From an uncultured Verrucomicrobiae bacterium (GTDB taxonomy: Bacteria > Verrucomicrobiota > Verrucomicrobiia > Limisphaerales > Palsa-1400), in assembly GCA_963764165.1 (NCBI GenBank), contig CAVXRD010000001.1, forward strand, positions 960,001-1,024,000: a DNA stretch of 64,000 nt. Reading direction: 5' to 3'. The notes below the pieces were generated by a model that saw only the letters and a program-made list of their open reading frames with translations, made no database searches and had not been told where the DNA came from. Position numbers and translations under genes: made by a program. Shown here one piece after another: positions 16,907 through 41,646 of this stretch. Within the stretch, counting starts at the first letter, position 1. Each line of letters starts with the position of its first letter.

Positions 16907-17802
16907 CACTGCAAAGAGGCACAACGTTCGAGCGCTAATCGAATTTTTTTGGGATCGCCAATTTTGAGCAACCGCGCTTGCAGCAACACGGGCTTCCATC
17001 TCACGTCAGAGGTGCGCATGACAGTGTTGATGACTTCAGCCACGGCGTCCTCCATAAAAGTCCAATCTCGAGTGCCGATGCTCACATTGAACGTTTCGCT
17101 TCCGACCTCGTTTTGAGAGATTCGGTCAAGCAATTCCAGCATCGGGCGAACGGAACGCGCGTCGCCCCTCCGAGAAAGCCCCACGATGGCTTCGCCTTTG
17201 ATCTCGCCATCGGTTTCCGTTAGCCGCGCGGCAAGAGCTTCTCGAATGGCGGGAGTATCCGCGTCGATCAGCGAACCGAGATTGAATGTCGCCCAATTGC
17301 GAACGTCGAAATCAGGATCGGCGGAGAGTTTAATCAACGCCATGATGGCTTCCTCGTTTTCAAATCCGCCGAGAGCAACTGTGGCCGCGTAACGCACGTC
17401 CGCATTGGCATGTTCTTGAAATCTCAAAATCGCGGGAATGCACCTTTTCTCGTGAAAATGCCCGACTGCGTGCAGCGCTGAAACGAGCGGTTCAATCGCA
17501 GTTTCATCCGCTAACGATGCAAGAAGCAAATCGACGCAGCGCGGCCCATTCCACTTCACAGGCATTCGGCTCTGTCCGAGAATCGTCGCGGCCGAGTCCC
17601 TGGCCATATCGCTTTTACTCTTAAGAAGTTCGACCACGTCATCGATAATGGCAGGCAAACGATATTGCAGCAGACGCATAGGATCCCAAAATGCTTCGTC
17701 GTCGGCATCCATGTCCTTCCTCAACACGAGGTCGATAAGCTCGCCATTTGACCGAGGGTCATTGCGATATTTCTCTTCCAACTCGGGCGACAGAGTCATC
17801 AT
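16906..17802 (-). CDS. HEAT-repeat (PBS lyase-like) protein, 298 aa
   Basis: Repeats DVRYAATVALG, DVRNWATFNLG, EIKGEAIVGLS, MARDSAATILG. ATGA overlap with the hen1 stop and TGATG overlap with the pnkp start. Confidence 0.85.
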   Translation of the reverse strand: MMTLSPELEEKYRNDPRSNGELIDLVLRKDMDADDEAFWDPMRLLQYRLPAIIDDVVELLKSKSDMARDSAATILGQSRMPVKWNGPRCVDLLLASLADETAIEPLVSALHAVGHFHEKRCIPAILRFQEHANADVRYAATVALGGFENEEAIMALIKLSADPDFDVRNWATFNLGSLIDADTPAIREALAARLTETDGEIKGEAIVGLSRRGDARSVRPMLELLDRISQNEVGSETFNVSIGTRDWTFMEDAVAEVINTVMRTSDVRWKPVLLQARLLKIGDPKKIRLALERCASLQ

Positions 17803-19205
17803 TGTCTTCCCTCGATGACAGCCATCTGAGTTGGCGAACCCACCGCTTGATCTTCGGGGCCGATGGAAACGAAACGCGCGCTGTAACCGAACCGCACGGC
17901 GACGCCATTCGCCCACTTCTGAAACTCAGCGCGAGTCCACTCGAAGCGGTGGTCGCGGTGGCGGAATTTTCCGGCGGGGAGTGTTTCCCATTTCACGTTG
18001 TATTCGCTGTTGGGCGTCGTGATGACGACGGTTGCCGGGCGAGCGCACTCGAAAAGCACTCGCTCGAAGGCGGCGAGGCGCGGGGGATCGAGATGCTCGA
18101 TTACCTCGACCACGGCGGCGGCGTCAAACCCGGACAGGCGCTCGTCGCGGTAAATCAGCGAGCCGTGGATGAGGCGGAGGCGCTTCTTTTGCAGTTCGGG
18201 CATCCGATCGTAATGCAAACGCTCGCTGGCAATTTCCAAAGCGCGATGCGAAACATCCATTCCGACAATTTCGGTGAATTGCCGCTCTTTCAGCAATGCT
18301 TGCAACAGCTTGCCCTCGCCGCAGCCAAGATCCAGCACACGGGTAGCGCCGCTCGATTTCAGCACGGCAAGCACAGAGCCTAATCGCTGCTCGTTGAGGC
18401 TGATGGTGCGCTCCACGACTTCCTCTTCTTGACTGTGCGCCTCCGCGGCGGCATCCGGATCCACTTCCGTGTCGGCCACCAATCGCACGAGGGCATCGTC
18501 CACCAGGCTGCGCTTGTGCTTCAAATAGCGGCGCGTGATGGCATCGCGCTCGGGATGGGTTGTGAGCCAGCCTTCGCCATGGCGCAGGAGCTTTTCCACT
18601 TCATCGTCGCCCACCCAATAGTGCTTGTCGTTGTCAAGAACAGGGGTCAGCACATACAAATGCGTCAACAATTGCCGAAGCGGAATGCTGTTCGCGAGTT
18701 CGACCTGGTGATATGCGCTCTCACCCCACTCGGGAAAACGCTCGTCCAGCGGCAAACGGCGGGCGGCGATGGTGTAGCCGAGCGGCTCAAATAATTTGCG
18801 CAAAAATTCCCCGCCCCCGCGGCATGGCAGCGCTGAGAGTGAAATGCTCAAAGGCAACGCCGCCCCGATCAGGTCAGGCCGCTCTTTGCTGCTGCCGGAA
18901 AGCGCGCTTCCGAAAACCTCCGCAATCGCAACGCTCAGAAACGACGACGCGGCGTACGGGCGATCATTGACATATTGCTCCAGCAAACCGCCTTCGCCCG
19001 CCGGCCCGCGCCGATTCCGCACCAATCCGACTGGATCCACCTCGACCTGCAGCGCCACCGTGCAGCGTTTCTCGTTCGCCTCGGGATAAAAGACATTCGC
19101 AACGCCAAAGGTCAGAGGAAACGATTGGACACGCGCGGGATTCTTGCGCAGCAGGAATCCGATGTCTGTCGCCGGCCGATGCGTTGTGGAAATTGTCAAT
19201 AACAT
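17799..19205 (-). CDS. hen1: 3'-terminal RNA ribose 2'-O-methyltransferase Hen1
   Basis: N-terminus MLLTISTTHRPATDIGFLLRKNP, YVNDRPY, KHYWVGDDEVEKLL. Methyltransferase motifs VLDLGCGEG, EVIEHL, TPNSEYN, FRHRDHRFEWTR. Confidence 0.95.
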   Translation of the reverse strand: MLLTISTTHRPATDIGFLLRKNPARVQSFPLTFGVANVFYPEANEKRCTVALQVEVDPVGLVRNRRGPAGEGGLLEQYVNDRPYAASSFLSVAIAEVFGSALSGSSKERPDLIGAALPLSISLSALPCRGGGEFLRKLFEPLGYTIAARRLPLDERFPEWGESAYHQVELANSIPLRQLLTHLYVLTPVLDNDKHYWVGDDEVEKLLRHGEGWLTTHPERDAITRRYLKHKRSLVDDALVRLVADTEVDPDAAAEAHSQEEEVVERTISLNEQRLGSVLAVLKSSGATRVLDLGCGEGKLLQALLKERQFTEIVGMDVSHRALEIASERLHYDRMPELQKKRLRLIHGSLIYRDERLSGFDAAAVVEVIEHLDPPRLAAFERVLFECARPATVVITTPNSEYNVKWETLPAGKFRHRDHRFEWTRAEFQKWANGVAVRFGYSARFVSIGPEDQAVGSPTQMAVIEGRQ

Positions 19206-19224: not shown

Positions 19225-19305
19225 AGGTAGGGACGCCTCGCCGAGGCGTCCGGGGTGAGGCGGGGTTCACGCGCAACCGGACGCCTCGGCGAGGCGTCCC
19301 TACCT
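19225..19305. repeat. REP doublet, family A (GTAG-type)
   Basis: Inverted pair GTAGGGACGCCTCGCCGAGGCGTCCGG ... CCGGACGCCTCGGCGAGGCGTCCCTAC. Each half is itself a hairpin. Confidence 0.9.
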
Positions 19306-26899: not shown

Positions 26900-27176
26900 G
26901 CTCAATACTATGTTAAATCGGAATATAAATCGGAGTAACGCTAAGAAGCCAAAGCCGATCACATGCGCAACTGTGCATGTATCCATGGCGCCGGGCAAGC
27001 TGTTTTTGGCAGGTGCTTTGACGCAACGAAGGTGAAATAAGAATTTAATCAGAAAGACCGGGAGAACGGAGTTGAAAAATCATCGTGAGGCAAAACCGTT
27101 CTTTCTCGGGTTCTCTCGGCATTCCTGTTTGATTTCAAAGTCTGGAGTTAAAGGCCCCGGTCCAGACGCCTCGGCG

Positions 27177-27316
27177 GAGACTGTCTCAAAACTCAAAAAC
27201 GGCTTTAAAAAGCACCACAAAAACACCCTCGCCGAAAATAAAAATGCGCCATATCGCAAATGAGAGAGTCGTAGTATTGACACATTTTGAGGATTTTGTA
27301 GTTTTGAGACAATCTC
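27177..27316. mobile_element. 140-bp MITE with IS1182-type ends, inserted in a family A REP
   Basis: TIRs GAGACTGTCTCAAAAC (27177-92) and GTTTTGAGACAATCTC (27301-16). GGCG direct repeat at 27173-76 and 27317-20. The flanks rebuild GACGCCTCGGCGAGGCGCCCCTAC. Confidence 0.85.
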
Positions 27317-27349
27317 GGCGAGGCGCCCCTACCTTTTCTGGGGCCGAGT

Positions 27350-27784
27350 TCACCCCGGAGGCGGGTTCGGATTCAGGGTGAATTGCGTCGTGTCGCCGGT
27401 TCTCGGCTTGAGTCCCAGGATGACGCCGACCTGCTCTCCCAAGAGCCGCGTGTTGATAGGTTTGGTGATGTAGGCGTCGCACCCGGCCTCGAACGCCTTT
27501 TTGTCATCGCCCTTCATCGCATACGCTGTAAGGGCAGCGACCTTGATATGCTTGGTGGCCGGATCGGCCTTGAGCTGGCGCGTCAGTGTCAACCCGTCCA
27601 TGCCGGGCAGAGATATATCCATCAATATCAGGTCGGGGTGTTCCTTCTGAATGACCTCGAGAGCCTGGGTGGCGTTGGTGGCGTCAAATATCTGGTAGCC
27701 GCTGAATTTGAGAGCGTAGGTCGCAACCTTGAGGTTCACCGGGTGGTCGTCGACCACCAAAACTTTGATGGCGTTGCCGTTCAT
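27350..27784 (-). CDS. Single-domain response regulator (CheY/DivK-like)
   Basis: VLVVDD, DLILMDISLPGMDG, ALTAYAM, YITKP. Confidence 0.92.
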   Translation of the reverse strand: MNGNAIKVLVVDDHPVNLKVATYALKFSGYQIFDATNATQALEVIQKEHPDLILMDISLPGMDGLTLTRQLKADPATKHIKVAALTAYAMKGDDKKAFEAGCDAYITKPINTRLLGEQVGVILGLKPRTGDTTQFTLNPNPPPG

Positions 27785-29856
27785 GTTGTTGGGGAGGCAG
27801 TTTTTGGCAGGACGACGGTGAAGGTGGTGCCTTTGCCAATTTCGCTTTCGACGCTAATGGTGCCGCCCTGTTTTTCGATAATTTTACGGGTCAGCACCAG
27901 GCCCAGCCCTGTTCCGCCTTGGCGGCGGGTTGGCCCGGAATCCAATTGCTCGAACTCGCGGAATAGCCGGGACAAATCGGCTGGCTTGATGCCGATGCCG
28001 TTATCTTTGACAGCTAGCTTGAACTTGTTGCCATCGTTTGGCGCGCAATCAATGATCACGAATCCGCGCTCGTCCGTAAATTTAATCGCATTTGAAACCA
28101 GATTAAACACAACCTGCTTGAATTTAAGCTGGTCCAAGTATACGTCCCCCAATTCGGGAGCGACAGAAGCAAATACTTGAATGTTTTTCTTCTGGGCAAT
28201 GGCCCGCGCCACCAGGCAAACCTCGTGCAACGCTTTCTTGGGGGAGAAATTCTCCGCAATGAATTCGAGCTTGCCCGCCTCCACCTTGGCCAGGTCAAGA
28301 ACATCGTTGACGAGTTGCAGCAGCAGGCGGCCGCTGGCGAGAACGTCGTCGAGAAATTCCTTTTGCTGCGGATTGAGTTCCCCAGGGCCGCCGTCAACAA
28401 GAAGTTCAGAGAGGCCGATGATGGCGTTCAAGGGCGTGCGCAATTCGTGGCTCATGGAGGCGAGGAATTCGGACTTGGCGCGCCCGGCTTGCTCGGCGTT
28501 TTCCTTGGCTTCTTTCAATTCGGCGGTGCGTTCGGCGACTTTGCGCTCCAAATTCTCGTAGGATTCCCGCAGGGCTTCCAGCGCCTTCTCCCGCTCGCTC
28601 ATTCCCGTGTTCAAAAAAAACAGGCCCACCGACAAAAGCGTAATGCTTAGAAACAATCCCAGCGGCAGCAGGAGAAAGGTGGTTCTGGAAACGTTGGACT
28701 CCTTCTTTTGCCGTTCGTCCAGGATTTTGTACTCGACATTTTCCATGTCCTTGACGGCGTCACGGATGGCCACGGAAACCTCCACCCGGCGGTCGTCGGC
28801 CATCAGGCGCTCGGCGGCGGCGGCTCCCTTGTCGCGGCGGGCGGCCATGATCTTCTCCCCTGCGGCAATGCGCTCCTCGACCAGCGACCGAAGCTGTGCA
28901 AGGCGATTTCGCTGGTGGAATTCATCGAGAGTCAATTCGTTGAGGGCCTCGAGATTCTTGTACAAAGCCATGCGGTATTCGGACTCCTCGGCAAAATATT
29001 GCGGGTGGGGATTGTTGAGGTAATTGGCTAGAGTGGTGCCAAGCGCGGAAACGCCCACCATGATTTGGCCGATTTCCTTCAGCTCCTCCTCGGAATGGCC
29101 CACGTCCGCCGAGGTGTGCTGAAGCTGGTCGGTGAATTGATAGGAAATCGCCGAAGCCAAAACCAGCGACACAATTCCAATCACAAATCCGCCTGTGGTC
29201 AATTTATCCAGGGACCAAACCAAGCCGCCGCGGTACTTGGCCAGGCTGAGCAATCCCACACCCAGCACGCCAAAACCCGTCGCGGTGTGAAAGGAGACGC
29301 CGGCGTAATCCCAAAGATCGATGTTGAACATGGCGGCGAAGACATGCCCAACCATCGTCAGCAGGCCAACCGCCAGCAGTGAAGCGCCGACCGCCGCCAG
29401 CAGCGCCGTGCGCCACTTGGAAGTTCGCCGTCCGGATTCCGCCACGAATTGAAGCCCCGTCAAGAAAAAGCAAAAGGCCGTCACCGGCGCCATGCGCCCC
29501 GCCACCGATGCCTTGTTGGCGGGACCTGGATCGTCAAAGAAAAAATGGTCGATCTGCAAATCCGCCCCGGAAAAATACTCGGTCAGGGTCAAGCCGCCGA
29601 TAGCCGCCAAGGCCAGCCCGGCGACCAGGGCAATAACGCGGCCCGTGGCGTTGACAAACCGAAACGAGAGGGAAAACAAGGCGATCCCGCACAGCAAAAA
29701 CCCAATCGCGGTGTTGGCCTTCATCGTCACAGAGCCCGGGACGATGGTTTTGAGAATCTGAATTTTAAAAGCCCAGCCCGCCAGCACGATCAGGCCGAGG
29801 ATGGCCGATGCCGCCGCTGTGGTGGACGCTATTCGGAGGGATCTGTCGTTCCTCAT
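27781..29856 (-). CDS. Membrane sensor histidine kinase (multi-TM, CHASE3-like, HisKA, HATPase)
   Basis: [38 protein letters not shown] overlap with the response regulator. Confidence 0.92.
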   Translation of the reverse strand: MRNDRSLRIASTTAAASAILGLIVLAGWAFKIQILKTIVPGSVTMKANTAIGFLLCGIALFSLSFRFVNATGRVIALVAGLALAAIGGLTLTEYFSGADLQIDHFFFDDPGPANKASVAGRMAPVTAFCFFLTGLQFVAESGRRTSKWRTALLAAVGASLLAVGLLTMVGHVFAAMFNIDLWDYAGVSFHTATGFGVLGVGLLSLAKYRGGLVWSLDKLTTGGFVIGIVSLVLASAISYQFTDQLQHTSADVGHSEEELKEIGQIMVGVSALGTTLANYLNNPHPQYFAEESEYRMALYKNLEALNELTLDEFHQRNRLAQLRSLVEERIAAGEKIMAARRDKGAAAAERLMADDRRVEVSVAIRDAVKDMENVEYKILDERQKKESNVSRTTFLLLPLGLFLSITLLSVGLFFLNTGMSEREKALEALRESYENLERKVAERTAELKEAKENAEQAGRAKSEFLASMSHELRTPLNAIIGLSELLVDGGPGELNPQQKEFLDDVLASGRLLLQLVNDVLDLAKVEAGKLEFIAENFSPKKALHEVCLVARAIAQKKNIQVFASVAPELGDVYLDQLKFKQVVFNLVSNAIKFTDERGFVIIDCAPNDGNKFKLAVKDNGIGIKPADLSRLFREFEQLDSGPTRRQGGTGLGLVLTRKIIEKQGGTISVESEIGKGTTFTVVLPKTASPTT

Positions 29857-29992
29857 AGCAGAGGAGGCGCAGCCAGGTGCCGTGCCCGCGCTGTGCCGCA
29901 CTGCTCAATAAAAATGGCTGGCCATCGTGACATTCTATAAAACATCCCGAATTCACCGCTGTGGGTCAATCAAATTGACGTTTTTCTCAAAG

Positions 29993-30089
29993 GCGGGGAC
30001 GCCTTGGCGAGGCGTCCGGGGTGAGGCCTAATTCATGCGCAAGCCTCGGACATTTTCACGCGCAACCGGACGCCTCGGCGAGGCGCTAC
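29993..30089. repeat. REP doublet, family A (degenerate)
   Basis: GGGGACGCCTTGGCGAGGCGTCCGGGGTGAGG ... CACGCGCAACCGGACGCCTCGGCGAGGCGCTAC. Confidence 0.85.
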
Positions 30090-30160
30090 CTCGCTTCGCA
30101 ACCACAATCGCGCAACTTTGAGATTTGACGCGAGTTCATGCGGGAGCCAACATTCCTCTC

Positions 30161-30944
30161 ATGAACTCTAGCGTTATTGCATTTCTGGCGCTTGCGGGAG
30201 CATTCGCCGTCTCCATGTTGCCGGCCGCCGCCGCTGATGCTGACAAACCGCAGTACTACGAATTGCGCGTTTACACCACGAAATCCGCCGAGCAGCAAAA
30301 GCTGGTCAGTGATTATTGGCAGAACGCGGCCGGTGCCGGCTTACAACCGCATGGGCATCTCGCCCGTCGGCGTTTTCACTGAAACTCAGGAATCGCCTAC
30401 GAACAAAATTTACGTGCTGGTTCCGTGCGATAGCTTGGAGACGTTCGCCGCCATTCCCGCCAAGCTCGCCGCTGACACCGCTTATCAAGCCGCTTCCGCC
30501 GAGTACATGGCGCGGCCCAAAGGCAGCCCAGCCTTTGAGCGAATTGAAAGCTCTCTCAATATTGCTTTTGACGGAATGAAAAAACTGGCTGTTCCGCCAT
30601 CTGCCGCCGAAAAGAAACCGTGGATATTTGAATTGCGGATTTACGAGAGCCCGACCGAAAACAAAGGCATTAACAAGGTCCAGATGTTCAATTCTGGCGA
30701 AGTTTCGTTGATGCAGGAAGTTGGCCTAAGCCCGGTCTTTTTTTCACAGACCGTCGTCGGCCCGCAAATGCCGAACCTCGTTTACATGGTCTCCGCGGAA
30801 AACATGGACGAGCACAAAAAGCATTGGGACGCTTTTCGCAACGCCGCCGTCTGGAAAAAACTCAGTTCGGATCCGCAATACAAAGACAACGTCTCGCGCG
30901 TGACGAGCATTTTTCTGAAACGCACGCCGGCGTCACAGATTTAA
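30161..30944 (+). CDS. NIPSNAP family protein; single-base frameshift at ~30332
   Basis: Signal peptide, YYELRVY, IFELRIYES, LVYM, C-terminus FLKRTPASQI. One extra G separates QNAA from VPAYNRMG. Confidence 0.82.
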
Positions 30945-30961
30945 GTCGTCGGCCAAGAATC

Positions 30962-31185
30962 TCATTTCTTAAGCGACACAAGAACAGCGGTTCCATCGAA
31001 ACGTGGCTTTTTGGGGTCTCCGACGGCCCGCGCCTCCGCAAGCTTGCGCGTCATACGCGGTCGTCCGACTTTGTTCACGAAAAACTTGAGTTTCCCTTTT
31101 TCCGTAACCAGCAATTGCTCCCCATAACGCCACGCATCCACCAACCCGGCGTCGCTATAAACTTTCGCACAGTCACCGCTCTCAT
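30962..31185 (-). pseudogene. Probable antitoxin (Phd-like), frameshifted, followed by a toxin stub
   Basis: MRAVTVRKF-(one T missing)-YSDAGLVDAWRYGEQLLVTEKGKLKFFV...FDGTAVLVSLKK*. ATGA overlap into MRFLADDLNL*, which resembles a PIN N-terminus. Confidence 0.5.
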
Positions 31186-31429
31186 ATAGCTAGTTTTATT
31201 GTCTAACGACGCGGCATCGAAGCGAAATTATTTGGAGAATTCCATCTGATCTTGCGTTGCGGAGGATGCGGTCGGCGAGGGCACCGACCGCGACACGCAA
31301 GGCGCGTGCGCTCCCGCGCGCAGAGGGAAGCGCCTCGCGTCCCGCAGCCCATACGCCTTATAATTCCGATAAATCCGCTCCTTACTTCGCAATTGCCTGT
31401 GATTGATGGCTTGGATAAGACTGTTCGCC

Positions 31430-32284
31430 ATGCTTGCATTTTTAAGGTTGGCGTTCAGTGGTTTTGCTCTCAGTCTTATCTGCGCTGCCAGCGTCACCGC
31501 GGAACCTTTCAAAACGCCCATCGGTCTGCAATTGGAAAGTGTGAACGGCGGCATGCACAAGGATATGGCCGGGACGCTCGAGAAAGTCCACAACTGGGGT
31601 TTCACTGAGGTTGAGCTCGTGGGCGACTACAATCTATCGCCGTCCGCCTTGAAAGCGGAATTGGCTGAGCACAAGCTCAAAGCCACCAGCGCGCATTTTC
31701 CCTACGCGACGTTTCGCGATGCGCCGGATAAGCTCGCGGAAGAAGCAAAAGCGCTGGGCCTCGTCACCATCGGTTGTCCTTCGCTTCCTCAGCACGACGC
31801 GCTGGATGAGTCCGGCTGCCGGGCCGCCGCCGAGATGTTCAATCATGCGGGCCAAATCATGAGCGAACACGGCGTCAAATTTTTCTATCATCCGCACGGT
31901 TACGAATTTAAACCATTCGGCCAGGGCACACTCTTTGATTTATTGGTGACAAATACGAATCCCAAATACGTCCATTTCCAAATGGATATTTATTGGATCG
32001 TCCACGCTGGCCAGGACCCAATCAAACTTCTCAAGCGTTATCCGGATCGCTGGGTTTCGATGCACTTAAAGGATATGCGGAAAGGAGCGCCAACGGGAAT
32101 TTTCAATGGCACCATCAACCGAAAGGATTTTGTGCCGATTGGCCAGGGGCAGATCGATATCGTCGGCGCAATGAAACTAGCTTACAAATTTGGCGTCAAA
32201 TCCTTCATCATCGAAGACGAATCCAGTTCTGCCGACACGGGAATTCCCCAAAGTTTGACGTTTTTGAAATCCGTGACGTGGTGA
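31430..32284 (+). CDS. Sugar phosphate isomerase/epimerase (xylose isomerase-like TIM barrel), secreted type
   Basis: IGLQL, GFTEVE, YHPHGYEF, QMDIYW, HLKD, IIEDE. Confidence 0.88.
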   Translation: MLAFLRLAFSGFALSLICAASVTAEPFKTPIGLQLESVNGGMHKDMAGTLEKVHNWGFTEVELVGDYNLSPSALKAELAEHKLKATSAHFPYATFRDAPDKLAEEAKALGLVTIGCPSLPQHDALDESGCRAAAEMFNHAGQIMSEHGVKFFYHPHGYEFKPFGQGTLFDLLVTNTNPKYVHFQMDIYWIVHAGQDPIKLLKRYPDRWVSMHLKDMRKGAPTGIFNGTINRKDFVPIGQGQIDIVGAMKLAYKFGVKSFIIEDESSSADTGIPQSLTFLKSVTW

Positions 32285-32332
32285 CGGCCGGGGTATGATT
32301 AAATGCGTGTGATCTTGCAGGCGCGAAGCGAG

Positions 32333-32433
32333 GTATGGACGCCTCGCCGAGGCGTCCGGGGTGAGGTTCTCTCAATTCCAGCGTCTTGAAAATTTCACAC
32401 GTCGACCCGGACGCCTCGGCGAGGCGTCCCTGC
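32333..32433. repeat. REP doublet, family A
   Basis: GTATGGACGCCTCGCCGAGGCGTCCGGGGTGAGG ... CCCGGACGCCTCGGCGAGGCGTCCCTGC. Confidence 0.88.
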
Positions 32434-32519
32434 CTTTTCGCCGCTTTTATCGCGCCGGGAAATCAAGACAGACAGAATTTCATCTCGCATGAACCGCAAC
32501 TGGCGTTAAATTCGAGCGC

Positions 32520-33302
32520 ATGTCGTTTTTTTTCGTTTTTCTGGGATCCGGCACCTCGCAAGGCGTGCCGATCATTGGCAAGGAATATCCGCCGTCGTTC
32601 CTTGCCAATCCGAAAAATCATCGCACGCGCCCGTCCATTTACGTGGAAACGGACAAAGTTAAGTTCGTTGTCGACACAACGCCGGAGTTTCGCATCCAGA
32701 TTCTGCGCGAAAACATCCGCTGGCTGGACGCCGTCATTTTCACCCACGCGCACGCCGACCACATCATGGGCTTGGACGATTGCCGCCGGTTCTGCGATTT
32801 GCGCGGCGGCCCCCTGCCCGTTTACGCCACCAAGGTGACGATGGACAATTTGGCGCGCGTGTATAATTACGCCTTCCTGGCCAAGGAAATTCCCAAGGGC
32901 TATTTCGCGCCCGAGCCGCATCTCGTGGAAGGCCCGTTCACGCTCGGCGATTTGGAAATCACGCCGATGGAATTGCCGCACGGGCCCGTCAACACAACGG
33001 GCTACCTTTTCACGCAAGGCGGCGTCAAACGGCTGGCCTATCTGAGCGATTGCAAGGAAGTCCCGGCCGCCGCGCATGAGATCATCCACGGCGTCGAAGT
33101 CTTGGTGCTCGATGCGTTGCGGCACGCTCCGCATCCGACGCATATGTGCCTCGACGAGGCGCTCACTGCCGCCCGGCGCATTAATGCGGGGCGCACTTAC
33201 TTCACGCACCTGACCCACGATTTCGACCATGACATCGCGCAGGCCGAGCTTCCGCCGACGGTGGAATTTGCCTTCGACGGATTGCGGGTGGATGTGCCAT
33301 AG
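32520..33302 (+). CDS. MBL-fold metallo-hydrolase (PhnP-like)
   Basis: [40 protein letters not shown]. Confidence 0.9.
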
Positions 33303-33312
33303 TTTGACCGCG

Positions 33313-34959
33313 ATGCGATTCCGCAACTTCGTGGCCGCCGTTATTCTGATATTTATCGGAATTCCATTGGCGTCCGCCGACGGGCCGGGGGACTCGGTTG
33401 TTGTCGTATATAATTCCAAACAGCCGGATTCGAAAGGAGTCGCCGAGCATTACGCCGAGCGCCGGCACGTTCCCAAGAGCCAGATCATCGGGCTTGATCT
33501 GCCGACGGACGAAACGATGTCACGAGCCGACTATCGAACGAAACTGCAGCAGCCATTGCTGAAATTTCTCGAGGACAATCACCTATTCACCTATGCCCCG
33601 GCTCCCGATGGCGACACTCCGAGCAATGCGGTTCCAATCGCGGCGACGGTTCGCTACGCGGTCCTCTGTTACGGCGTCCCGCTGCGCATTGGCGAGGATG
33701 GCACGCTCGCCGAAGCCGGCGCGGATACAGTTGCAGAACCGCTGCGCCGCAATGGCGCAGCCGTTGATTCGGAATTATGCCGGCTGCCGGTGAAAAATTC
33801 GACTGCCCTTCTCACAGGGCCGGAGATGAATCACTTGTTCGGCAAGGTCCGCCCCGAGTGGCTGAGCCCCACCAACACGCTGCTGATGGTTACCCGGCTG
33901 GACGGCCCAAGTGCCATCATTGCGCGCGGCCTGATAGACAAAGCCATCGCGGCGGAATCGAACGGATTGTGGGGCCGGGCTTATTTTGACCTGCGCGGCC
34001 TCAAGGATGGCAATTACAAACCCGGCGATGACATGCTTCGCGCCGCGGCGGAAATTGCGCGCGAGTGCGGTTTTGACACTCTTGTTGACGAGAACGAAGA
34101 GACATTTCCCGCCGCGTTTCCCATGAGCCAGATCGCGCTTTACGCCGGCTGGTATAACAGCGATGCCAACGGGCCGTTCGCGCGGCCGAAGGTGGAATTC
34201 ATGCCCGGAGCCTTCGCCTATCATCTGCATTCATACAGCGCGCAAACGCTCCGCAGCACCAACACCCATTGGTGCGGCCCGCTGCTCGCGGAAGGCGCGG
34301 CCGCGACCATGGGCTGCGTCGATGAGCCTTATCTCTCAGGCACGCCCAACATGGATATTTTCTTCGCCGCCTGGCTGCGCGGCAGTTTCACTTACGGCGA
34401 GGCCGCCTACGCCTGCCAGCGCGTTCTCTCGTGGCAAACCACGGTCATCGGCGACCCGCTCTACCGCGCCTTCAGCATGCCCCCCCGCGCCCGCCACGAC
34501 ATGCTCGAACGCCAGCACAGTCCATGGCTGGAATGGGCCGACCTGCAATTCGTCAACGAAGCCCTGATCCTCGGCGCCAAGCCCGCCGAAATGATCGATT
34601 ACTTGACAAGCCCGTCCGTCCCGTCCCACAGCCCAATCCTTTCCGAAAAGCTCGCCGAACTATATCACGCTCGCGGTTCATCTGATGACGTCATCAAATC
34701 GCTGGAAGCCGCATTGGCGGACAATCCATCCCCGCAGCAAAGAGTGCGCCTGACCCTGAAACTCCACGACCGATTCATTGGCGCGAATCGCGAGTCCGAC
34801 GCGCTGGCGTTGCTCGAGAATTTCACCAAACAAAATCCCGACTACCCCGACCTCCTCAGCCTTTACCGTAGGATGGAAGCCCTCGCCACGAAACTGCACC
34901 ACTCCAAGGAAGCCAAAGCCATCGCTGACGAGATTGCGAAGCGCACGGAGCATAATTAA
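33313..34959 (+). CDS. TIGR03790 family protein with a C-terminal TPR-like region
   Basis: VVVVYN...SKGVAEHYAERR, AAVDSEL, MVTRLDGP, YAGWY, PGAFAYHLHSYSA, GCVDEPYL, LSWQTTVIGDPLY. Confidence 0.85.
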   Translation: MRFRNFVAAVILIFIGIPLASADGPGDSVVVVYNSKQPDSKGVAEHYAERRHVPKSQIIGLDLPTDETMSRADYRTKLQQPLLKFLEDNHLFTYAPAPDGDTPSNAVPIAATVRYAVLCYGVPLRIGEDGTLAEAGADTVAEPLRRNGAAVDSELCRLPVKNSTALLTGPEMNHLFGKVRPEWLSPTNTLLMVTRLDGPSAIIARGLIDKAIAAESNGLWGRAYFDLRGLKDGNYKPGDDMLRAAAEIARECGFDTLVDENEETFPAAFPMSQIALYAGWYNSDANGPFARPKVEFMPGAFAYHLHSYSAQTLRSTNTHWCGPLLAEGAAATMGCVDEPYLSGTPNMDIFFAAWLRGSFTYGEAAYACQRVLSWQTTVIGDPLYRAFSMPPRARHDMLERQHSPWLEWADLQFVNEALILGAKPAEMIDYLTSPSVPSHSPILSEKLAELYHARGSSDDVIKSLEAALADNPSPQQRVRLTLKLHDRFIGANRESDALALLENFTKQNPDYPDLLSLYRRMEALATKLHHSKEAKAIADEIAKRTEHN

Positions 34960-35088
34960 CGGCTTTTGGTCCCTACCGAAAAAAAGTGTGGATAAATCTG
35001 GAACTCACGAACTCAGGAAGAGAGTTCTGGAAAGACATTCCTGATTTCCAGATTAATTCCTCCCCAATTTTACTCCCATTTTCCAAGC

Positions 35089-35117
35089 TTGACCGGAGAC
35101 GGACAGTGCGCTAGTTT
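35089..35117 (+). promoter_or_regulatory. Sigma70 promoter of the ilv leader
   Basis: TTGACC-N17-TAGTTT, 8 nt before the leader ATG. Confidence 0.6.
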
Positions 35118-35125
35118 CTGCCGTC

Positions 35126-35206
35126 ATGCTCGGTAATTGGCTGCAAGTTATTCTGACAGGCGTGGTCGTCGTAGGACGGCCCGCCGTGGAGACTTGTCGC
35201 GTCTAA
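35126..35206 (+). CDS. ilv attenuator leader peptide, 26 aa
   Basis: MLGNWLQVILTGVVVVGRPAVETCRV*. Rich in Val/Leu/Ile, including four consecutive Val, and lies directly upstream of ilvB. Confidence 0.85.
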   Translation: MLGNWLQVILTGVVVVGRPAVETCRV

Positions 35207-35217
35207 TGCTTTCCGAC

Positions 35218-35253
35218 AAACCCACGGCTGAAAAGGTCGTGGGTTTTTTATTT
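35218..35253 (+). terminator. Attenuator (intrinsic terminator)
   Basis: AAACCCACGGC-TGAAAAG-GTCGTGGGTTTTTTATTT. GCCGTGG in the leader can pair with CCACGGC to form an antiterminator. Confidence 0.85.
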
Positions 35254-35282
35254 CGGCCCCCGGCCCGCCAGCCAAAAATCAT

Positions 35283-37157
35283 ATGAATACAAAAGTCCGA
35301 ACAAAAAAGTCACAGGCACTCAAAGCTCCCAAAGCTCCGGTCTCCAAAATCGGCGCGCCCATGGCGGGCAGCGATATTCTCATCCGCGCCCTCGAACGCG
35401 AAGGCGTCGAACATATTTTTGCCTATCCGGGCGGCGCCAGCATGGAACTCCACCAATCGCTGACGCGCTCGACCATTCGCACGATTTTGCCCCGGCACGA
35501 ACAGGGCGGCGCTTTTGCCGCCTGCGGTTACGCCCGCGCGACCGGCAAGCCGGGCGTTTGCATGGCCACCAGCGGTCCCGGCGCGACCAATCTCGTCACC
35601 TCCATCGCAGATGCCTACATGGATTCCGTCCCGCTCATCGCCATCACCGGCCAGGTGCCGCAGGCGATGATCGGCAAGGGCGCGTTCCAGGAAACCGACT
35701 TTTTCGGCATGACCCTGCCGGTTGTCAAACATAGTTATCTGATCACCGACATCAATGAAATCCCGCGCGTGGTCAAGGAAGCGTTTTATATCGCCCGCAC
35801 CGGGCGGCCCGGCCCGGTGGTGATTGATTTCCCGAAGAATCTCCAGCAAGCCCGCACGCAGCCAGTCTGGCCGACAGAAGTGACCTTGCGCGGTTACGAT
35901 CCGCTGCAAAAGGCGGACGATCTCGCATTGAATGAAATCATCGGATTGATCGAGAAGTCCGAGCGCCCCGTGCTTTATTGCGGTGGCGGCATCATCACGG
36001 GCGACGCGTCAGAAGAGCTTCGCAAATTTGCCGAGGCGACCAAAATTCCCGTGACCACGACGATCATGGGCTGCGGCGCCTTCCCGGAAACGCATCCGCT
36101 TTCCTTGCGCTGGCTCGGCATGCACGGCGCGGCGTTTGCCAATTGGGCGGTGAGCGGTGAATATCAATCACGCGCGAATTTCACCGACCAGGCGATCAAG
36201 GTGAAAGACGGGGCGGATTTGCTGCTGGCCTTCGGCGTGCGGTTTGACGACCGCGTGACCGGCAAAGTTGAGGAATTCTGCAAGACGGGAACGATCGTTC
36301 ATATTGACATCGATCAATCCGAGCACAACAAAAACCGCAAGGTGCATCTGGCCATCCAGAGCGACATTAAGTACGCGCTCAAGCGGCTCAATGAAATGGT
36401 CCGCAACCGCAAAATTCAAAAGACCTTCGAGGCGTGGCACAAGCAGATCGAGGAATGGAAGGCGCGCGCGCCATTCGCCTGGAAGGTCGACGAAGAGGTG
36501 GTCCACTCGGAGCACATGCACGAACACCTCCAAGGCCGCGAAAGTGAAGTGATTCTGCCGCAGATGGCCATCGAGATGCTTTACGAATTGACCAAAGGCG
36601 AGGCCGTCATCACGACAGGCGTCGGCCAGCACCAAATGTGGACGGGGCAATTCTACAAATTCAACACGCCCCGCCAGCTCATCACCAGCGCCGGACTGGG
36701 CGCGATGGGTTTCGGTTATCCGGCGGCGCTCGGCGCGAAAGTCGCCCTGCCGCACAAGCAGGTGGTCGATATTGACGGCGACGGTTCCTTCCTGATGAAC
36801 GTTCAGGAACTGGCCACCGCACACATCGAAAAAATCGCGGCCAAGGCGATGATCCTGAACAACCAGCACCTCGGCATGGTGGTGCAGTGGGAGGATAATT
36901 TCTACAAGGGCAATCGCGGCAACACCTATTTGGGGGACCCGAATTTGCGCAAACAAATTTATCCCGATTACATCGCGATGGCGAAGAGCTTCAATGTCCC
37001 CGCCCAGCGCGTCATGTATAAGAAAGACCTGCGCAAGGCGATTCAGGATATGCTTGACTCAGATCAGCCATATTTGCTGGACGTCATCTGCCCCTACACG
37101 GAGCACGTGATGCCCTTCATCCCCGCCGGCCGGACGGTGGCGGATATGCGGTATTGA
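35283..37157 (+). CDS. ilvB: Acetolactate synthase large subunit
   Basis: [42 protein letters not shown] (ThDP motif). Confidence 0.96.
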
Positions 37158-37179
37158 GTTGGTCGATTTGGCTTTGGCT

Positions 37180-37291
37180 CGGTAGGGCGAGGCTCCTGCC
37201 GAGCCGTCCTATTGGTCGTATAAGTCCTATAGGTCCTATTCAATAAAAGCCCGGGAAGATGGGATGGCTCGGCGGGAGCCTCGCCCTACCG
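37180..37291. repeat. REP doublet, family B (GTAG-type)
   Basis: CGGTAGGGCGAGGCTCCTGCCGAGCC ... GGCTCGGCGGGAGCCTCGCCCTACCG, between convergent ilvB and trpC. Confidence 0.88.
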
Positions 37292-38077
37292 TCAAACATT
37301 CAGAAGCTGCTCTATTTTTTCGCCGATGCTCTCGCGCTCCCTGTTGCGCAACAGCGATTCTCCCACTAGGATCGCCCCTGCCCCCGCGCGATAGACTTGC
37401 TGCACGTCGGCTGCCGTGTTCAATCCGCTTTCGGCGACGATGAACTTCCCCGGCATCTTCGCGGCGAGGCGGGCGGTCGTCCCCAAATCCACAGTAAAAT
37501 TATCCAAATTTCGATTGTTGACGCCGATGAGCGGCGCGTCCATCGCAAGCACGCGTTCCAGTTCCGCCTCATCATGCACCTCGACCAGCGCGGTCAAGCC
37601 CGCGTCGACGGCGAGTTGATGGAACTGGCGCAATTGCGCGTCGGACAAAATTCGAACGATTAACAGGATGGCGTCCGCGCCGTTTTCGGCCGCCTCAAGA
37701 ATCTGGCGTTCGTCAATTATAAAGTCCTTGCGCAAGAGAGGAAGCGAAACCGCCGCGCGAATTTGCCGAAGGTATTCCAATGAGCCTTGAAAGAATTTCT
37801 CGTCCGTGAGCACGGAAAGACAGGCAGCCCCCGCCGCTTCGTATTCGCGGGCGATGCGAACGGGATCAAAATCCGCGCAGATGACTCCGGCGGACGGCGA
37901 GGCTTTCTTTACTTCCGCGATCAATGCAACCGGGCCGCGCCTGGGCTGGCGCAGCGCGGAAAAAAAATCGCGCGGCGAACGGCGGGCATCCCGGATCATC
38001 GCGGGCGTGACTTCGAAAGTTGGCAGCTTCGCCACTTCGCGCTTTTTCTCCGCGACAATGGTGTCGAGGATGTTCAT
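37292..38077 (-). CDS. trpC: Indole-3-glycerol phosphate synthase
   Basis: IAEVKKASPSAG, LSVLTDEKFFQG, LRKDFI, IGVNNRNL, AESG, LVGESL. The start overlaps the prfB stop (TAATG). Confidence 0.95.
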   Translation of the reverse strand: MNILDTIVAEKKREVAKLPTFEVTPAMIRDARRSPRDFFSALRQPRRGPVALIAEVKKASPSAGVICADFDPVRIAREYEAAGAACLSVLTDEKFFQGSLEYLRQIRAAVSLPLLRKDFIIDERQILEAAENGADAILLIVRILSDAQLRQFHQLAVDAGLTALVEVHDEAELERVLAMDAPLIGVNNRNLDNFTVDLGTTARLAAKMPGKFIVAESGLNTAADVQQVYRAGAGAILVGESLLRNRERESIGEKIEQLLNV

Positions 38078-39223
38078 TAGTCTTCCTCGTCTTTGACGCC
38101 GGCCATGCGTTTGAGCGGGCAGCCGGCGCGCAGCCACGCGTTGACGAATGGGTCCAAATTGCCGTCCATGACGCCCTGGACATTGCTTGTTTCCTCGCCG
38201 GTGCGCAGGTCTTTCACCATGCGATACGGCTGGAAAACATAACTGCGAATCTGGTGTCCAAAGCCAATCGAGCCTTTCTCTCCGTAAAAGCGTTCCAATT
38301 CCGCTTTCTGCTCGTCAACCCGTTTGGCGTAAATTTTCGAAATCAACATGCGCATGGCGGTGGCGCGGTTTTGATGCTGTGATCGCTGGCCTTGCGATGC
38401 GGCAATCAAGCCCGTGGGCAAGTGCGTGATGCGGACGGCTGTTTCCACTTTGTTGACGTTCTGCCCGCCCTTGCCGCCGGAGCGATACGTGTCCACCTGC
38501 AATTCGGCGGGCGGAAGAACGATATCCGAACTCGTCTCCTCGATTTCCGCGATGACGTCGACGCTGGCGAAACTGGTGTGGCGGCGCTTATTGGAATCGT
38601 AAGGAGAAATGCGGACGAGGCGATGGACGCCGCGCTCGGCTTTGCAGAAACCGTAGGCGCATTCGCCGTTGATCAGCAGCGTGGCGCTCTTGATGCCCGC
38701 CGTTTCGCCGAGCAGGACATCCGATACTTCAACTTCCCAGCCGCGATTTTCGCACCAGCGCTGGTACATGCGCAGGAGCATGTCCGCCCAGTCGCAAGCT
38801 TCCGTGCCGCCCGCGCCGGAGTTAATGCTGAGGATGCAATTGTTCCTGTCGTGCGGGCCGTTGAGAAAAACCCGCAGCTCAATGCTCTCCAGCTCACTGG
38901 TGAATTTCGCCAGGTCGCGCTCCAGTTCGGCTTCGTGGCGGGGCTGTTCGCTGGCAGGCTCGTCTTGCACCAATTCGAGCATCGCCTTGAAATCTTCGGC
39001 CTGGCGCTCGGCTTTGAGGACGGGCTCCGTCTTTTTGCGGAGAGAATTGGCTTCGTCGATGAGGGCCTGGGCTTTTTCGCGGTTATTCCAGAAACCCTCC
39101 TGGGCCATCAACTGATCAAGTTCGGCGAGGCGTTTTTGAATTCCTGGCAAGTCAAAGAAACCTCCGCAGATGAGCAACTTTTTCCTCAGCGGCCGGCAAT
39201 TGAACTTTGATCTTGTCGAACAT
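38077..39223 (-). CDS. prfB: Peptide chain release factor 2 with programmed +1 frameshift
   Basis: The first segment MFDKIKVQLPAAEEKVAHLRRFL ends at CTT-TGA-C and continues DLPGIQ in the +1 frame. Motifs GAGGTEA, RISPY, GGQ, QIRSY. Confidence 0.95.
39151..39165 (-). promoter_or_regulatory. RF2 autoregulatory frameshift signal
   Basis: GGAGG-TTT-CTT-TGA-C on the minus strand: an internal SD, the slippery CTT and the UGA stop. Confidence 0.93.
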
Positions 39224-39366
39224 GATGGCGAAACATACAGCAAAAGCCTCCGGACGCAAAGGGCAAATGGGGCATTTCAAAGGCAGGGGCGCCTAGCCGA
39301 GGCTTCCGAGGACTTTCACAAGTCCGAACGCGCTCGAAAAACGCCGCAGCCTCGGACGCCTCGGCG

Positions 39367-41049
39367 GAGACTGTCTCAAAACGTTTTAGTCTGGCCGATC
39401 TGGTTATATGGGCACCAATAGGGGCTGTGGAAACGGGTGTCAACTTTTAGTTGTCAGAGCGTGGCTGGCGTCAGCGATGACGCCAAGCTTCCCTTTCCCT
39501 CCTTTTTTAGGCCGCCATCGCCAAATTTCCTTCAACCGCGGCGGTTTTGACTTCCATTTTCGGCGTCTGGACCCGGGCCTGCCACTTTTTATAGAGGATT
39601 CGCAGGTTCAAGGTGGCGCATAACAAGGCCCATTGGGCTTGCACGGCTTCCAGACCCCAAACTGTCCAACGCCGAAAGCCGTCGTGTTGCTTGAGCTGCC
39701 CAAACCGGCGTTCGATGATCTCTTTGCGCTTTCCATAAAGCGCGGCGGGTCCTGGCTCTTGCAGCCGGGCCCGCATGGCTTGCACCAGCGTGGTGTGCGG
39801 CCACACTTCGACTTGCCGCCCTTTGGGATCGCGGCTGCAGAGGGCGCGCACGGGACAGTCTCGGTGATGGCAGCGGAAGCGCTCAACGGTCTGGCCTTTC
39901 TTGGTGGTCTGGCCTTCGTGGTCCAGAAGGCGCTCTTGCGGGCAGGTGACGGTGTGGGCCGCCTCGTCATAATGAAAATGCTGCGTCGCGTAGGCGTTGT
40001 CGTGGGCTGGCTTGCCCTCCGCCGGCGGGGCCAGCACATTCATCTGCTGTTCCACGGCCGCTTTCAAGTCGGCCCCGCCCCCATAGCCGGCGTCGGCGGC
40101 GGTGAGGGTTGGAATGGCCGCCGGACCGAGGTTTTGCCTCGCTTCTTCAATCATGGGGACCAGCTGGCCGGCGTCGGTTTCCTGGCGGGTGGCTTGACAG
40201 GCGACCATGATGCCCTCCTGGCTGTCGGCCACCGCCTGGGCGTTGTAGGCAAAGCGGTTGGTGTCGCCGACTTTCATCCGGCGCGCCTCCGGTTCGGCTG
40301 GATGGTAATGGTGGCGCCCGTCGGCCTGCAGCTGGGCCAGGCCTTTTTTGATTTCCTCGCGCAGGGCCTGGCGCTGGGCCAACCCGGCGGGCAGCCGGCA
40401 GCCCGGTGCGCTGGAATCCTGGTTCTCCGCCACGACTTTGAGCTCGATTTCCTCCAAGGCGCCATCCAGCTGGGCCAGGAGCTTCTCCATGTAAACCTTG
40501 CTCCAGCCCTGCGGCCCGCTGCAGGCGGCTTGAATCTTGGTGCCGTCCAACGCTTGCAAGGCAAATCCCACCGCCCCGGTGCGGAGGGCCAGCTGCACGG
40601 TTTGCTTGAAAACCTGGCGCAGGGCCTTTTTGTTTCCGTCCCAGAACCGCCAGAGGCTGTTGTGGTCGGGGGCGTTGAGCCCCGTCAGCCACAGCAGCGA
40701 GACATGCTCCGTGCAGGCGGTTTCCAGCTTGCGGGTGGAGCGAATGCGGTGGAAATAACCGTAAAGCCAAATCTTGAGCAGGAGGCTGGGGGCATAGGGC
40801 GGACGGCCTTCGGCGGCGGCGGGAATGACAAACCCAAGCTGGGGCAGATCCAACTGGTCGACAAATTCGCGCAGGAAGCGGGCGGGATGGTCGGCGGACA
40901 CCCAGTCCTCCAGGGCGGGCGGGAGGAGGAACTGCTGTCCGTAATCAGGGGCAATCGGTTGAGCCATATTTGTTGAACGGCATTGTCAACTAAAGGCTCA
41001 CATATTGTCAAATACATTCCTCAAAAAACAGAAGTTTTGAGACAATCTC
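39367..41049 (-). mobile_element. IS1182-family insertion sequence, 1683 bp, inserted in a family A REP
   Basis: 16-bp TIRs GAGACTGTCTCAAAAC / GTTTTGAGACAATCTC (one mismatch). GGCG is duplicated at 39363-66 and 41050-53. Confidence 0.93.
39507..40967 (-). CDS. IS1182-family DDE transposase
   Basis: QQFLLPPALEDWV, GRPPYAP.LLLKIWLYGY...STRKLE, LDGTKIQA, AYNAQ, ADAGY, C-terminal Cys-containing insert, KRKEIIERRFGQLK. Confidence 0.93.
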   Translation of the reverse strand: MAQPIAPDYGQQFLLPPALEDWVSADHPARFLREFVDQLDLPQLGFVIPAAAEGRPPYAPSLLLKIWLYGYFHRIRSTRKLETACTEHVSLLWLTGLNAPDHNSLWRFWDGNKKALRQVFKQTVQLALRTGAVGFALQALDGTKIQAACSGPQGWSKVYMEKLLAQLDGALEEIELKVVAENQDSSAPGCRLPAGLAQRQALREEIKKGLAQLQADGRHHYHPAEPEARRMKVGDTNRFAYNAQAVADSQEGIMVACQATRQETDAGQLVPMIEEARQNLGPAAIPTLTAADAGYGGGADLKAAVEQQMNVLAPPAEGKPAHDNAYATQHFHYDEAAHTVTCPQERLLDHEGQTTKKGQTVERFRCHHRDCPVRALCSRDPKGRQVEVWPHTTLVQAMRARLQEPGPAALYGKRKEIIERRFGQLKQHDGFRRWTVWGLEAVQAQWALLCATLNLRILYKKWQARVQTPKMEVKTAAVEGNLAMAA

Positions 41050-41061
41050 GGCGAGGCGTCC

Positions 41062-41646
41062 CTACCTTAATTTCCAGCGCGCGTGCCATTGTTGCAGGGT
41101 GCTCACGAAATAACGATCCCGCTTGTGATTGACAACACCGATGAATGAATCGCCCAGCCGAATTGCAATTGCCAACGACCATACAAATAGGACGATTGTA
41201 ATTAGAAAATTCTGCCAGCCGTCGAGCGGCCATTGATGCCGCCAGAACCAAATCGGATTTTGCCGCAACGGGCCAAGATACATGATGGGCCAAAGATCAA
41301 TCGCATCGGGCCCCCGCGAACCGAGAAAATCGCACAGCACATGCAAATGAAACGCCACCAAAGCCAGGCCGAAGACGCGCCAGCGCTTGTGAGCGATGGC
41401 TGCCATGATTACGGCGCAAAGCAGGGCCGCTGGCAAACCGTGGCCGACAAAGTGATGGTATTTTGGATAATAATAATACTCGTATTTGCCGGAAGTCGTG
41501 GCGTCCTTATACCAGTCAACAAAAAGGCCCAAACCATCGAGATCCGGAATGACGCCAGCCAATGAAACCAATCGCCGGTCGCGCAAATTGTCGGTCGTTT
41601 TGGCGGCAATGATCCAACTGGCCAGCAAATGAGTTAATGGCGACAT
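41062..41646 (-). CDS. Membrane-bound metal-dependent hydrolase (YdjM-like)
   Basis: MSPLTH, IPDLDG, YHHFVGHG, HLHVLCD, several TM segments. The TAG stop lies in the REP GTAG. Confidence 0.8.
   Translation of the reverse strand: MSPLTHLLASWIIAAKTTDNLRDRRLVSLAGVIPDLDGLGLFVDWYKDATTSGKYEYYYYPKYHHFVGHGLPAALLCAVIMAAIAHKRWRVFGLALVAFHLHVLCDFLGSRGPDAIDLWPIMYLGPLRQNPIWFWRHQWPLDGWQNFLITIVLFVWSLAIAIRLGDSFIGVVNHKRDRYFVSTLQQWHARWKLR

Follow-up and report, generated by a model that had tools for sequence, protein, structure and literature searches.

How does an insertion sequence (IS) settle on its landing site? The question was raised by a 64,000-nucleotide stretch of an uncultured Verrucomicrobiae bacterium (contig CAVXRD010000001.1 of assembly GCA_963764165.1, positions 960,001 to 1,024,000; hereafter, the window), in which two mobile elements interrupt repetitive extragenic palindromic (REP) sequences of the same family. 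[quoted passage not shown] A sequence-only reading of the window had reported that the two share identical 16-bp ends, are flanked by GGCG and occupy the same REP base, and all of this was found where it had been placed. Judging from the sequence patterns described below, we consider it probable that the transposase picks its site by reading the GTAG tag of the REP together with a well-paired stem.

We examined the two window sites base by base. At the IS, the untagged arm of a REP that we assigned to family 1 (39354..39366, plus strand) ends in GGCG (39363-39366), and across the element a second GGCG (41050-41053) opens the tagged arm (41050..41065, minus strand), whose GTAG (41062-41065, minus strand) lies 16 nt from the IS end. 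The MITE site repeats this arrangement, with an untagged arm at 27164..27176 (plus strand) ending in GGCG (27173-27176) and a second GGCG with the tagged arm at 27317..27332 (minus strand), again with GTAG 16 nt from the element end. Both elements begin with GAGACTGTCTCAAAAC and carry GAGATTGTCTCAAAAC at the other end, and all 16 positions are identical (16/16). The two terminal inverted repeats of the IS, 16 bp each, are located on the 3' side (39367..39382, plus strand) and the 5' side (41034..41049, minus strand) of the transposase gene and differ from each other at one position. The earlier reading had regarded this asymmetric mismatch as shared by both elements; it holds for the window pair and fails as a general feature, as 11 of the 22 MITE copies in the genome begin with GAGTC.

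Copies of both elements were then collected by BLASTN from the 7.0-Mb genome (5 contigs). The census comprised 27 IS copies that are 99.9-100% identical, of which a contig end truncates one, together with 22 MITE copies (95-100%) and a single broken relic. Every one of the 49 copies splits a REP: 44 lie in family 1, 4 in family 2 and 1 in a hybrid, whereas sites of families 1 and 2 make up approximately 7e-5 of genome positions. Tabulating the flanks genome-wide thus dispelled the concern that most copies might lie outside REPs. The foot of the filled REP was GTAG in 47 cases, GCAG in 1 and degenerate in 1. Among the 48 copies with both flanks, 37 showed a perfect 4-bp duplication, 1 a 5-bp duplication, 9 a single-base mismatch and 1 a hybrid; the duplications matched their sites and took the forms CGCC, CGGC, CACC, TGCG, TGTG and TGCC. 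The REP halves do not merely travel with the element, as 444 intact REPs remain in the genome (406 family-1 cores and 38 family-2 copies) and the stems are varied. Orientation relative to the REP was mixed (18 vs 29 in 47 rows, p=0.14), and the common orientation of the window pair, to which the sequence-only reading had drawn attention, is attributable to chance. The transposase gene lies on the locally G-richer strand in 21 of 27 IS copies, with a GC skew too weak to call a replication bias; likewise, the tagged strand was divided 30:19 at filled REPs vs 113:95 at empty ones, with a skew too weak to define replichores.

Three loci are worth adding to this census. The IS copy at C2:2992594, which separates a family-1 arm from a family-2 arm, is probably a recombinant between copies. 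The broken relic (C1:1276500-1276790) belongs to a related IS1182 element with 80% DNA identity and lies at a GCAG-footed REP with CGCG at the junction. Another genome (G003) keeps the gene order kdsD-ydjM-prfB with a gap of ~160 nt that contains neither GTAGGG nor GCAGGG; the IS is therefore an insertion, yet this genome does not provide an intact-REP allele.

We next measured where the insertions fall relative to the tag. The clean sites, defined by a perfect duplication and a GTAG foot, numbered 36 of 48 after 10 mismatched or hybrid sites and 2 non-GTAG sites were left out. At 35 of these 36, the duplication begins 12 nt past the G of GTAG, with the folded hairpin tip at 12.5-15. When the loop of a palindrome is odd, a 4-bp stagger can fall in either of two registers. 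With the tip at position 14, all 38 four-base sites (31 here and 7 in relatives) took the register nearer the tag. The loop sequence was rejected as the cause of this choice, as three sites with a GGC loop duplicate CGGC. The tag itself also seemed to matter among family-1 REPs with perfect arms: the filled ones had 31 GTAG and 0 GCAG feet (plus one CAAG) vs 182 GTAG and 56 GCAG feet in the empty ones (p=7e-4).

The family-1 REP has a GTAG foot, a 9-bp stem and a GCC loop, and family 2 has a different stem; the second family used here and the many other stems used in relatives overturn the claim of a single target sequence. Among the 406 family-1 cores, 217 carry GTAGG on one side and 104 carry GCAGG on one side. 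The first ten Y1 transposase loci examined had no family-1 or family-2 REP, and the model for REP-associated tyrosine transposases (RAYTs) then located the genes flanked by family 1. Two RAYT genes score above the NF047646 cut-off, and each has family-1 REPs on both sides; therefore, the family-1 REPs are true RAYT-type REPs, which were likely spread by the host RAYT. No RAYT gene flanked by family 2 was found among four loci checked. A third family of 150 bulged REPs with GTAG or GCAG feet (85 GTAG) flanks a RAYT-like gene at C1:422213, and none of its 150 copies in this genome is used by the IS or the MITE. Relatives at 80% (L068 and L077) do sit within bulged REPs resembling family 3. We did not accept the off-centre cut in such REPs as proof of a ruler, as the hairpin is bulged and its tip lies mostly at 13-13.5.

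To follow the pattern beyond this genome, we collected 97 relative loci with transposases 63-88% identical to that of the IS, drawn from 9 of 17 genome-contig matches, the best 80 of 271 metagenome matches and 8 loci from genome searches; these loci share ancestry, and the counts below overstate their independence. The closest named loci are mostly from Verrucomicrobia metagenome-assembled genomes. Their element ends are nearly the same as here, and their REP stems differ widely. Of the 159 distinct ends whose flank extends for 22 nt or more, GTAG lies at 16 nt in 70, at 17 nt in 12 and elsewhere in 1, and 77 have none. That is, 82 of 159 ends have GTAG at 16 or 17 nt vs 0.65 expected by chance, and approximately half of the ends being tagged is as predicted by one tagged side per insertion. 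A perfect duplication was present at 25 distinct relative sites, 22 of them with GTAG, and 21 of these 22 were cut at +12 with the tip at 12.5-15. One locus (L044) shows GTAG+12 with almost no hairpin (-1.5 kcal/mol).

More distant elements gave a mixed picture. In a genome from another family of the same order (G390 C1, L199-L231), a 31%-identical IS1182 element and a MITE of ~173 bp occupy a GTAG/GTGG REP with 642 pattern matches; the cut lies at +11 and the duplication is GTAC. This is an independent three-tier system. Two loci at 28-29% identity (L146 and L147) likewise lie at GTAG+12, and their 4-bp duplications match. The majority of the other distant relatives that we examined, loci from Ignavibacteria and Aminicenantes among them, had no GTAG and adjoin other repeats.

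A single base beside the element attracted our attention. At 9 of the 48 sites, all in family 1, the two copies of the duplication are identical except for the base that abuts the element (4 A, 4 G and 1 C), giving CGCA at four sites and CGCG at four on the tagged side and GGCC at one on the other side. Among the loops of 321 empty one-footed REPs, GCA occurs 0 times and GCG 2 times; therefore, the odd base did not come from the target. Each odd base equals the base next to the same element end in other copies, and the two bases beyond it (GC) are common to nearly all donors. For the MITE at C1:597576, G is present at that end in each of the three copies that share its set of variants. If 1-3 nt of donor flank stayed on the 5' ends of the element and annealed into the 4-nt gap, the odd base would be explained; we are evenly divided on this idea, which draws on general DDE chemistry and the shared flank pattern. 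Random sequence error is an unlikely source, given that the IS bodies differ by only ~9 substitutions in 43.8 kb across copies, and the product expected from whole-arm gene conversion between copies was not seen. The odd base may also be a polishing artefact, which is countered by A being the minority base, one that would not win the vote. In the relatives, 8 single mismatches affect position 1 or 4 of the duplication, and no mismatch affects position 2 or 3 alone. We did not count them as independent support because hybrids from collapsed assemblies predict the same pattern. The G390 elements were set aside for this purpose as well, given their self-complementary duplication and degenerate MITEs.

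Taken together, the preferred mechanism would run as follows. The transposase would bind the 16-bp ends common to the IS and the MITE and capture the REP as a duplex or an extruded hairpin. On the GTAG strand, one element end would be joined at a point 12 nt past the G of GTAG; the other end would be joined to the opposite strand, 4 nt (in rare cases 5 nt) beyond that point. Either end could take either strand, which would leave orientation free. Gap repair would then produce the 4-bp duplication at the hairpin tip. A short piece of donor flank (1-3 nt) might travel on the 5' ends of the element and sometimes be retained. The IS would thereby exploit a second selfish family, the RAYT-spread REPs, as hundreds of landing pads that are intergenic at the window sites. 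In its widest form, the proposal is that throughout a widespread IS1182 lineage the DDE transposase itself reads the GTAG tag of the RAYTs and measures 12 nt whatever the stem, and that the 5' ends of the element retain at most 3 nt of donor flank; we offer this form tentatively, as somewhat doubtful.

The preferred reading of tag plus stem has to be weighed against a transposase that recognizes structure only and would cut any strong hairpin or cruciform, once extruded, at its tip, in line with the proposal made for IS1272. GTAG would then be incidental, because REPs are the commonest intergenic hairpins. Such a transposase would account for relative stems that vary widely yet remain complementary, for the bulged family 3 being skipped here, for the three clean relative sites without GTAG and for two sites that follow the tip; moreover, the hairpins that IS1272 targets show no sequence consensus (PMC4923244, PMC5678879; here and below, cited papers are represented by the portions of their text that were available). 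It fits poorly with the avoidance of GCAG copies that have identical arms, with the exclusive use of the tag-side register in the odd-loop palindrome, and with L044, which has the tag without a hairpin. In addition, no IS or MITE lies in any of 979 untagged, non-family-1 perfect hairpins with stems of at least 8 bp, a set taken regardless of gene boundaries, so that many of its members may lie within genes. We therefore regard recognition of structure only as unlikely.

Several observations nevertheless weigh against reading of the tag. Family 3, with its 85 GTAG copies, is never used here; therefore, the tag alone is not enough. Three of the 25 clean relative sites lack GTAG (L046 has GTGG; L048 and L093 have no tag), and the cuts at C1:688701 (+10) and L099 (+13) both follow the hairpin tip. 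The ruler and the tip mostly coincide, as REP stem lengths are narrow. A single REP family and a single enzyme account for 31 of the 38 register cases, and several of the relative loci have an element in common. The GCAG-footed REPs could differ from the others in age or accessibility, not in recognition. Among 70 distinct two-ended relative loci, 21 have one tagged side and a clean duplication, 19 are tagged on both sides and 14 on neither; we read the loci other than those 21 mostly as hybrids from collapsed assemblies. The distant G390 system has GTAG or GTGG at 15 nt in 19 of 44 ends, with GTGG (11 ends) about as frequent as GTAG (8 ends). Finally, the odd base shows an 8:1 bias to the tagged side (p=0.04) and an excess of A, neither of which the donor-base idea explains. 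A bound one-sided factor might explain this side bias, which brings in a further possibility: a host protein on the tagged REP strand, a RAYT (TnpA-REP) or another, would present the hairpin or recruit the transposase and set the register. TnpA-REP does contact GTAG and uses it for strand discrimination (PMC8266576), and in this genome the targeted family flanks RAYT genes that look intact. Nevertheless, the transposase is conserved and the same rule recurs in many hosts and on many REP stems, family-3 REPs escape insertion despite flanking a RAYT-like gene of their own, and in IS1397 and ISKpn1 the transposase itself appears to carry the REP specificity (PMC1525189), so that such a co-factor seems improbable to us. 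The last explanation, in which insertion is broad and copies survive only in REPs, or the REP halves are part of the element, is very improbable and already largely refuted by the base-exact insertion point with matched, site-specific duplications, by the use of two unrelated REP stems in both orientations with 444 REPs left intact, and by copies that are almost identical, hence recent. The facts that could be cited for it are the intergenic position of the window REPs, where insertions are probably harmless, and the element end GAG, which on the tagged side re-forms the uppermost part of the REP stem.

The single long open reading frame (ORF) of the IS, the transposase gene (39507..40967, minus strand), encodes 486 amino acids that pass the IS1182 family model NF033551 with 346.7 bits (cut-off 270); the IS5 and ISNCY models fall below their cut-off. 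Pfam matches to DUF772 and DDE_Tnp_1_6 were obtained, and in an alignment of 105 homologs D141, D292, E419 and R414 as well as C342, C371 and C377 are invariant. The model, the domains, the DDE triad, the terminal repeats and the target duplication all fit, and the IS belongs to the IS1182 family. By tblastn, it is the only source of a full-length transposase of its kind in the genome. The best named plasmid match is an ISPse1-type transposase (32% identity), and a search of solved structures with the transposase profile gave 0 matches at E up to 1. Elements of the IS110 family guided by bridge RNA have a DEDD recombinase and lack true terminal repeats; an IS110 assignment was rejected, as the enzyme here is a DDE IS1182 transposase and terminal repeats and duplications are present. 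The IS4 family was likewise rejected, as the residues are spaced R-(4)-E-(6)-K, only 16 of 105 homologs have Y411 and the duplication is 4 bp, whereas the IS4 signature is Y-(2)-R-(3)-E-(6)-K with duplications of ~7-13 bp (PMC2266710).

The 140-bp partner has the properties of a MITE: it is short and gene-less, has terminal repeats, reaches a high copy number and shows a perfect 4- or 5-bp duplication at 20 of 22 copies. Its interior had been described as dissimilar to that of the IS, and indeed genome-wide BLASTN gave no MITE-to-IS similarity outside the full copies. Against the relative loci, the interior matched only other MITEs, apart from one 13-nt match at E 0.81. An origin by internal deletion of this IS or of the relatives examined was rejected because no interior match was found, and no promoter was found within the MITE. 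MITEs 72-77% identical occur in two other genomes (G011 and G029), likewise within REPs. The identical 16-bp ends and the identical site geometry suggest that the transposase likely moves the MITE in trans. As a separate observation, a related MITE and IS lie a few bases apart within one REP (L056/L015, G011 C93).

We compared this system with those described previously. The three-tier reading, in which a REP family supplies sites, putatively of safe-harbour benefit, for a transposase that also mobilizes a non-autonomous partner, gained support from the 49/49 copies in REPs, the 406 + 38 intact REPs, the RAYT-flanking family 1 and the related MITEs and IS ends elsewhere. It is less new than it first appears, as publications already describe palindrome targeting by IS1182, a MITE of IS1182 type and the pairing of a REP-targeting IS with a non-autonomous element. 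IS1272/TnSha1 of the same family targets hairpins with variable stems in both orientations, but it deletes the stem-loop without duplication, and its targets are terminators without a sequence consensus (PMC5678879, PMC4923244); in contrast, this IS leaves a 4-bp duplication at the tip, targets RAYT-type REPs and keeps a fixed distance from GTAG. Loop duplication is drawn as a possible pathway in PMC5678879, according to which a review by Siguier names palindrome-targeting IS1182 members without detailed data. REP-specific elements include ISRm22 (IS4), ISPsy8, IS1397 and ISKpn1 (IS3), and IS621, ISPpu9 and ISPpu10 (IS110) (PMC1525189). As here, all copies of each are at one REP base, and the DDE elements among them, ISRm22 and ISPsy8, cut the palindrome at its axis and produce a short duplication; however, these elements belong to other families, each described for one host REP, and the table of that paper has no IS1182 member. 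In its available text, we found no tag-distance rule across different stems. ISPpu9 and the mobile ssr9 module resemble our pair in having a REP target and an autonomous and a non-autonomous partner served by the same enzyme, but that enzyme is of the IS110 family, with circular intermediates and without a DDE domain, terminal inverted repeats or duplications (PMC12288879).

The closest parallel to the MITE is MITEPye1 of Paracoccus yeei, a gene-less intergenic element of ~150 bp with IS1182-like ends and 4-bp duplications, presumed to be moved in trans (PMC11578231). It has 1-3 copies per chromosome vs 22 here, all in REPs; the word "palindrom" is absent from that paper, in whose available text we found no REP target described. 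GTAG repeats are known from Verrucomicrobia, and the targets of our elements resemble those of the RAYT/TnpA-REP system in being GTAG-tagged palindromes beside RAYT genes (PMC8266576, PMC3733652). A RAYT is a single-strand HUH nuclease, whereas the enzyme of our IS is an unrelated DDE transposase that apparently relies on that tag too. Among PMC2266710, PMC3971601, PMC5821093 and bioRxiv 2024.06.02.596822, no IS1182 orientation bias is reported, and the available portions of these four hold nothing on REP tags. A literature search returned no title or abstract opening on an IS1182 lineage that cuts at a fixed GTAG distance, most subscription papers and supplements lying outside its coverage. 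The system works like known loop-duplicating, REP-targeting elements and is real, clean and widespread; insertion into palindromes is already familiar from the family, and the tag-and-ruler geometry across many stems looks new.

Elsewhere in the window, three uninterrupted targets had been listed and are present, albeit with two amendments. An intact family-1 pair lies at 19232..19303 (cores begin at 19232 and 19280), a second pair at 29998..30089 combines a shortened copy (30068-30089) with a core at 29998 that is intact, and a third, intact pair lies at 32338..32433, in which the copy at 32409-32433 has a GCAG foot rather than GTAG. The three further cores at 19232, 29998 and 32338 mean that the window REPs come in pairs. 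Both window insertion sites, the only two considered in this respect, lie between ORFs with Pfam support. The window also contains genes for Pnkp, a HEAT-repeat protein and Hen1 in a row (14357-19205), which form an RNA-repair cluster, and a surface-type protein of 4622 amino acids (68-13936) with matches to FG-GAP, NHL, fn3, laminin G and PATR.

How members of the IS1182 family choose their targets is sparsely documented, and this lineage offers a precise rule consisting of a tag, 12 nt, a 4-bp stagger and free orientation. The rule belongs to a single-protein element of 1.7 kb that comes with a natural 140-bp mini-substrate. If the hairpin alone matters, the lineage is a well-documented example of a known habit. 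The odd base could reveal the donor-cleavage chemistry of IS1182 and, if our account of it is true, would be the first genomic clue to how the element leaves its donor site. If the transposase reads the tag directly, it would be a compact site-specific integrase for a 25-bp landing pad; if it does so whatever the stem, it would be a tag-directed integrase for the whole REP class. Direct reading of the tag would also mean that one selfish element uses the recognition tag of another.

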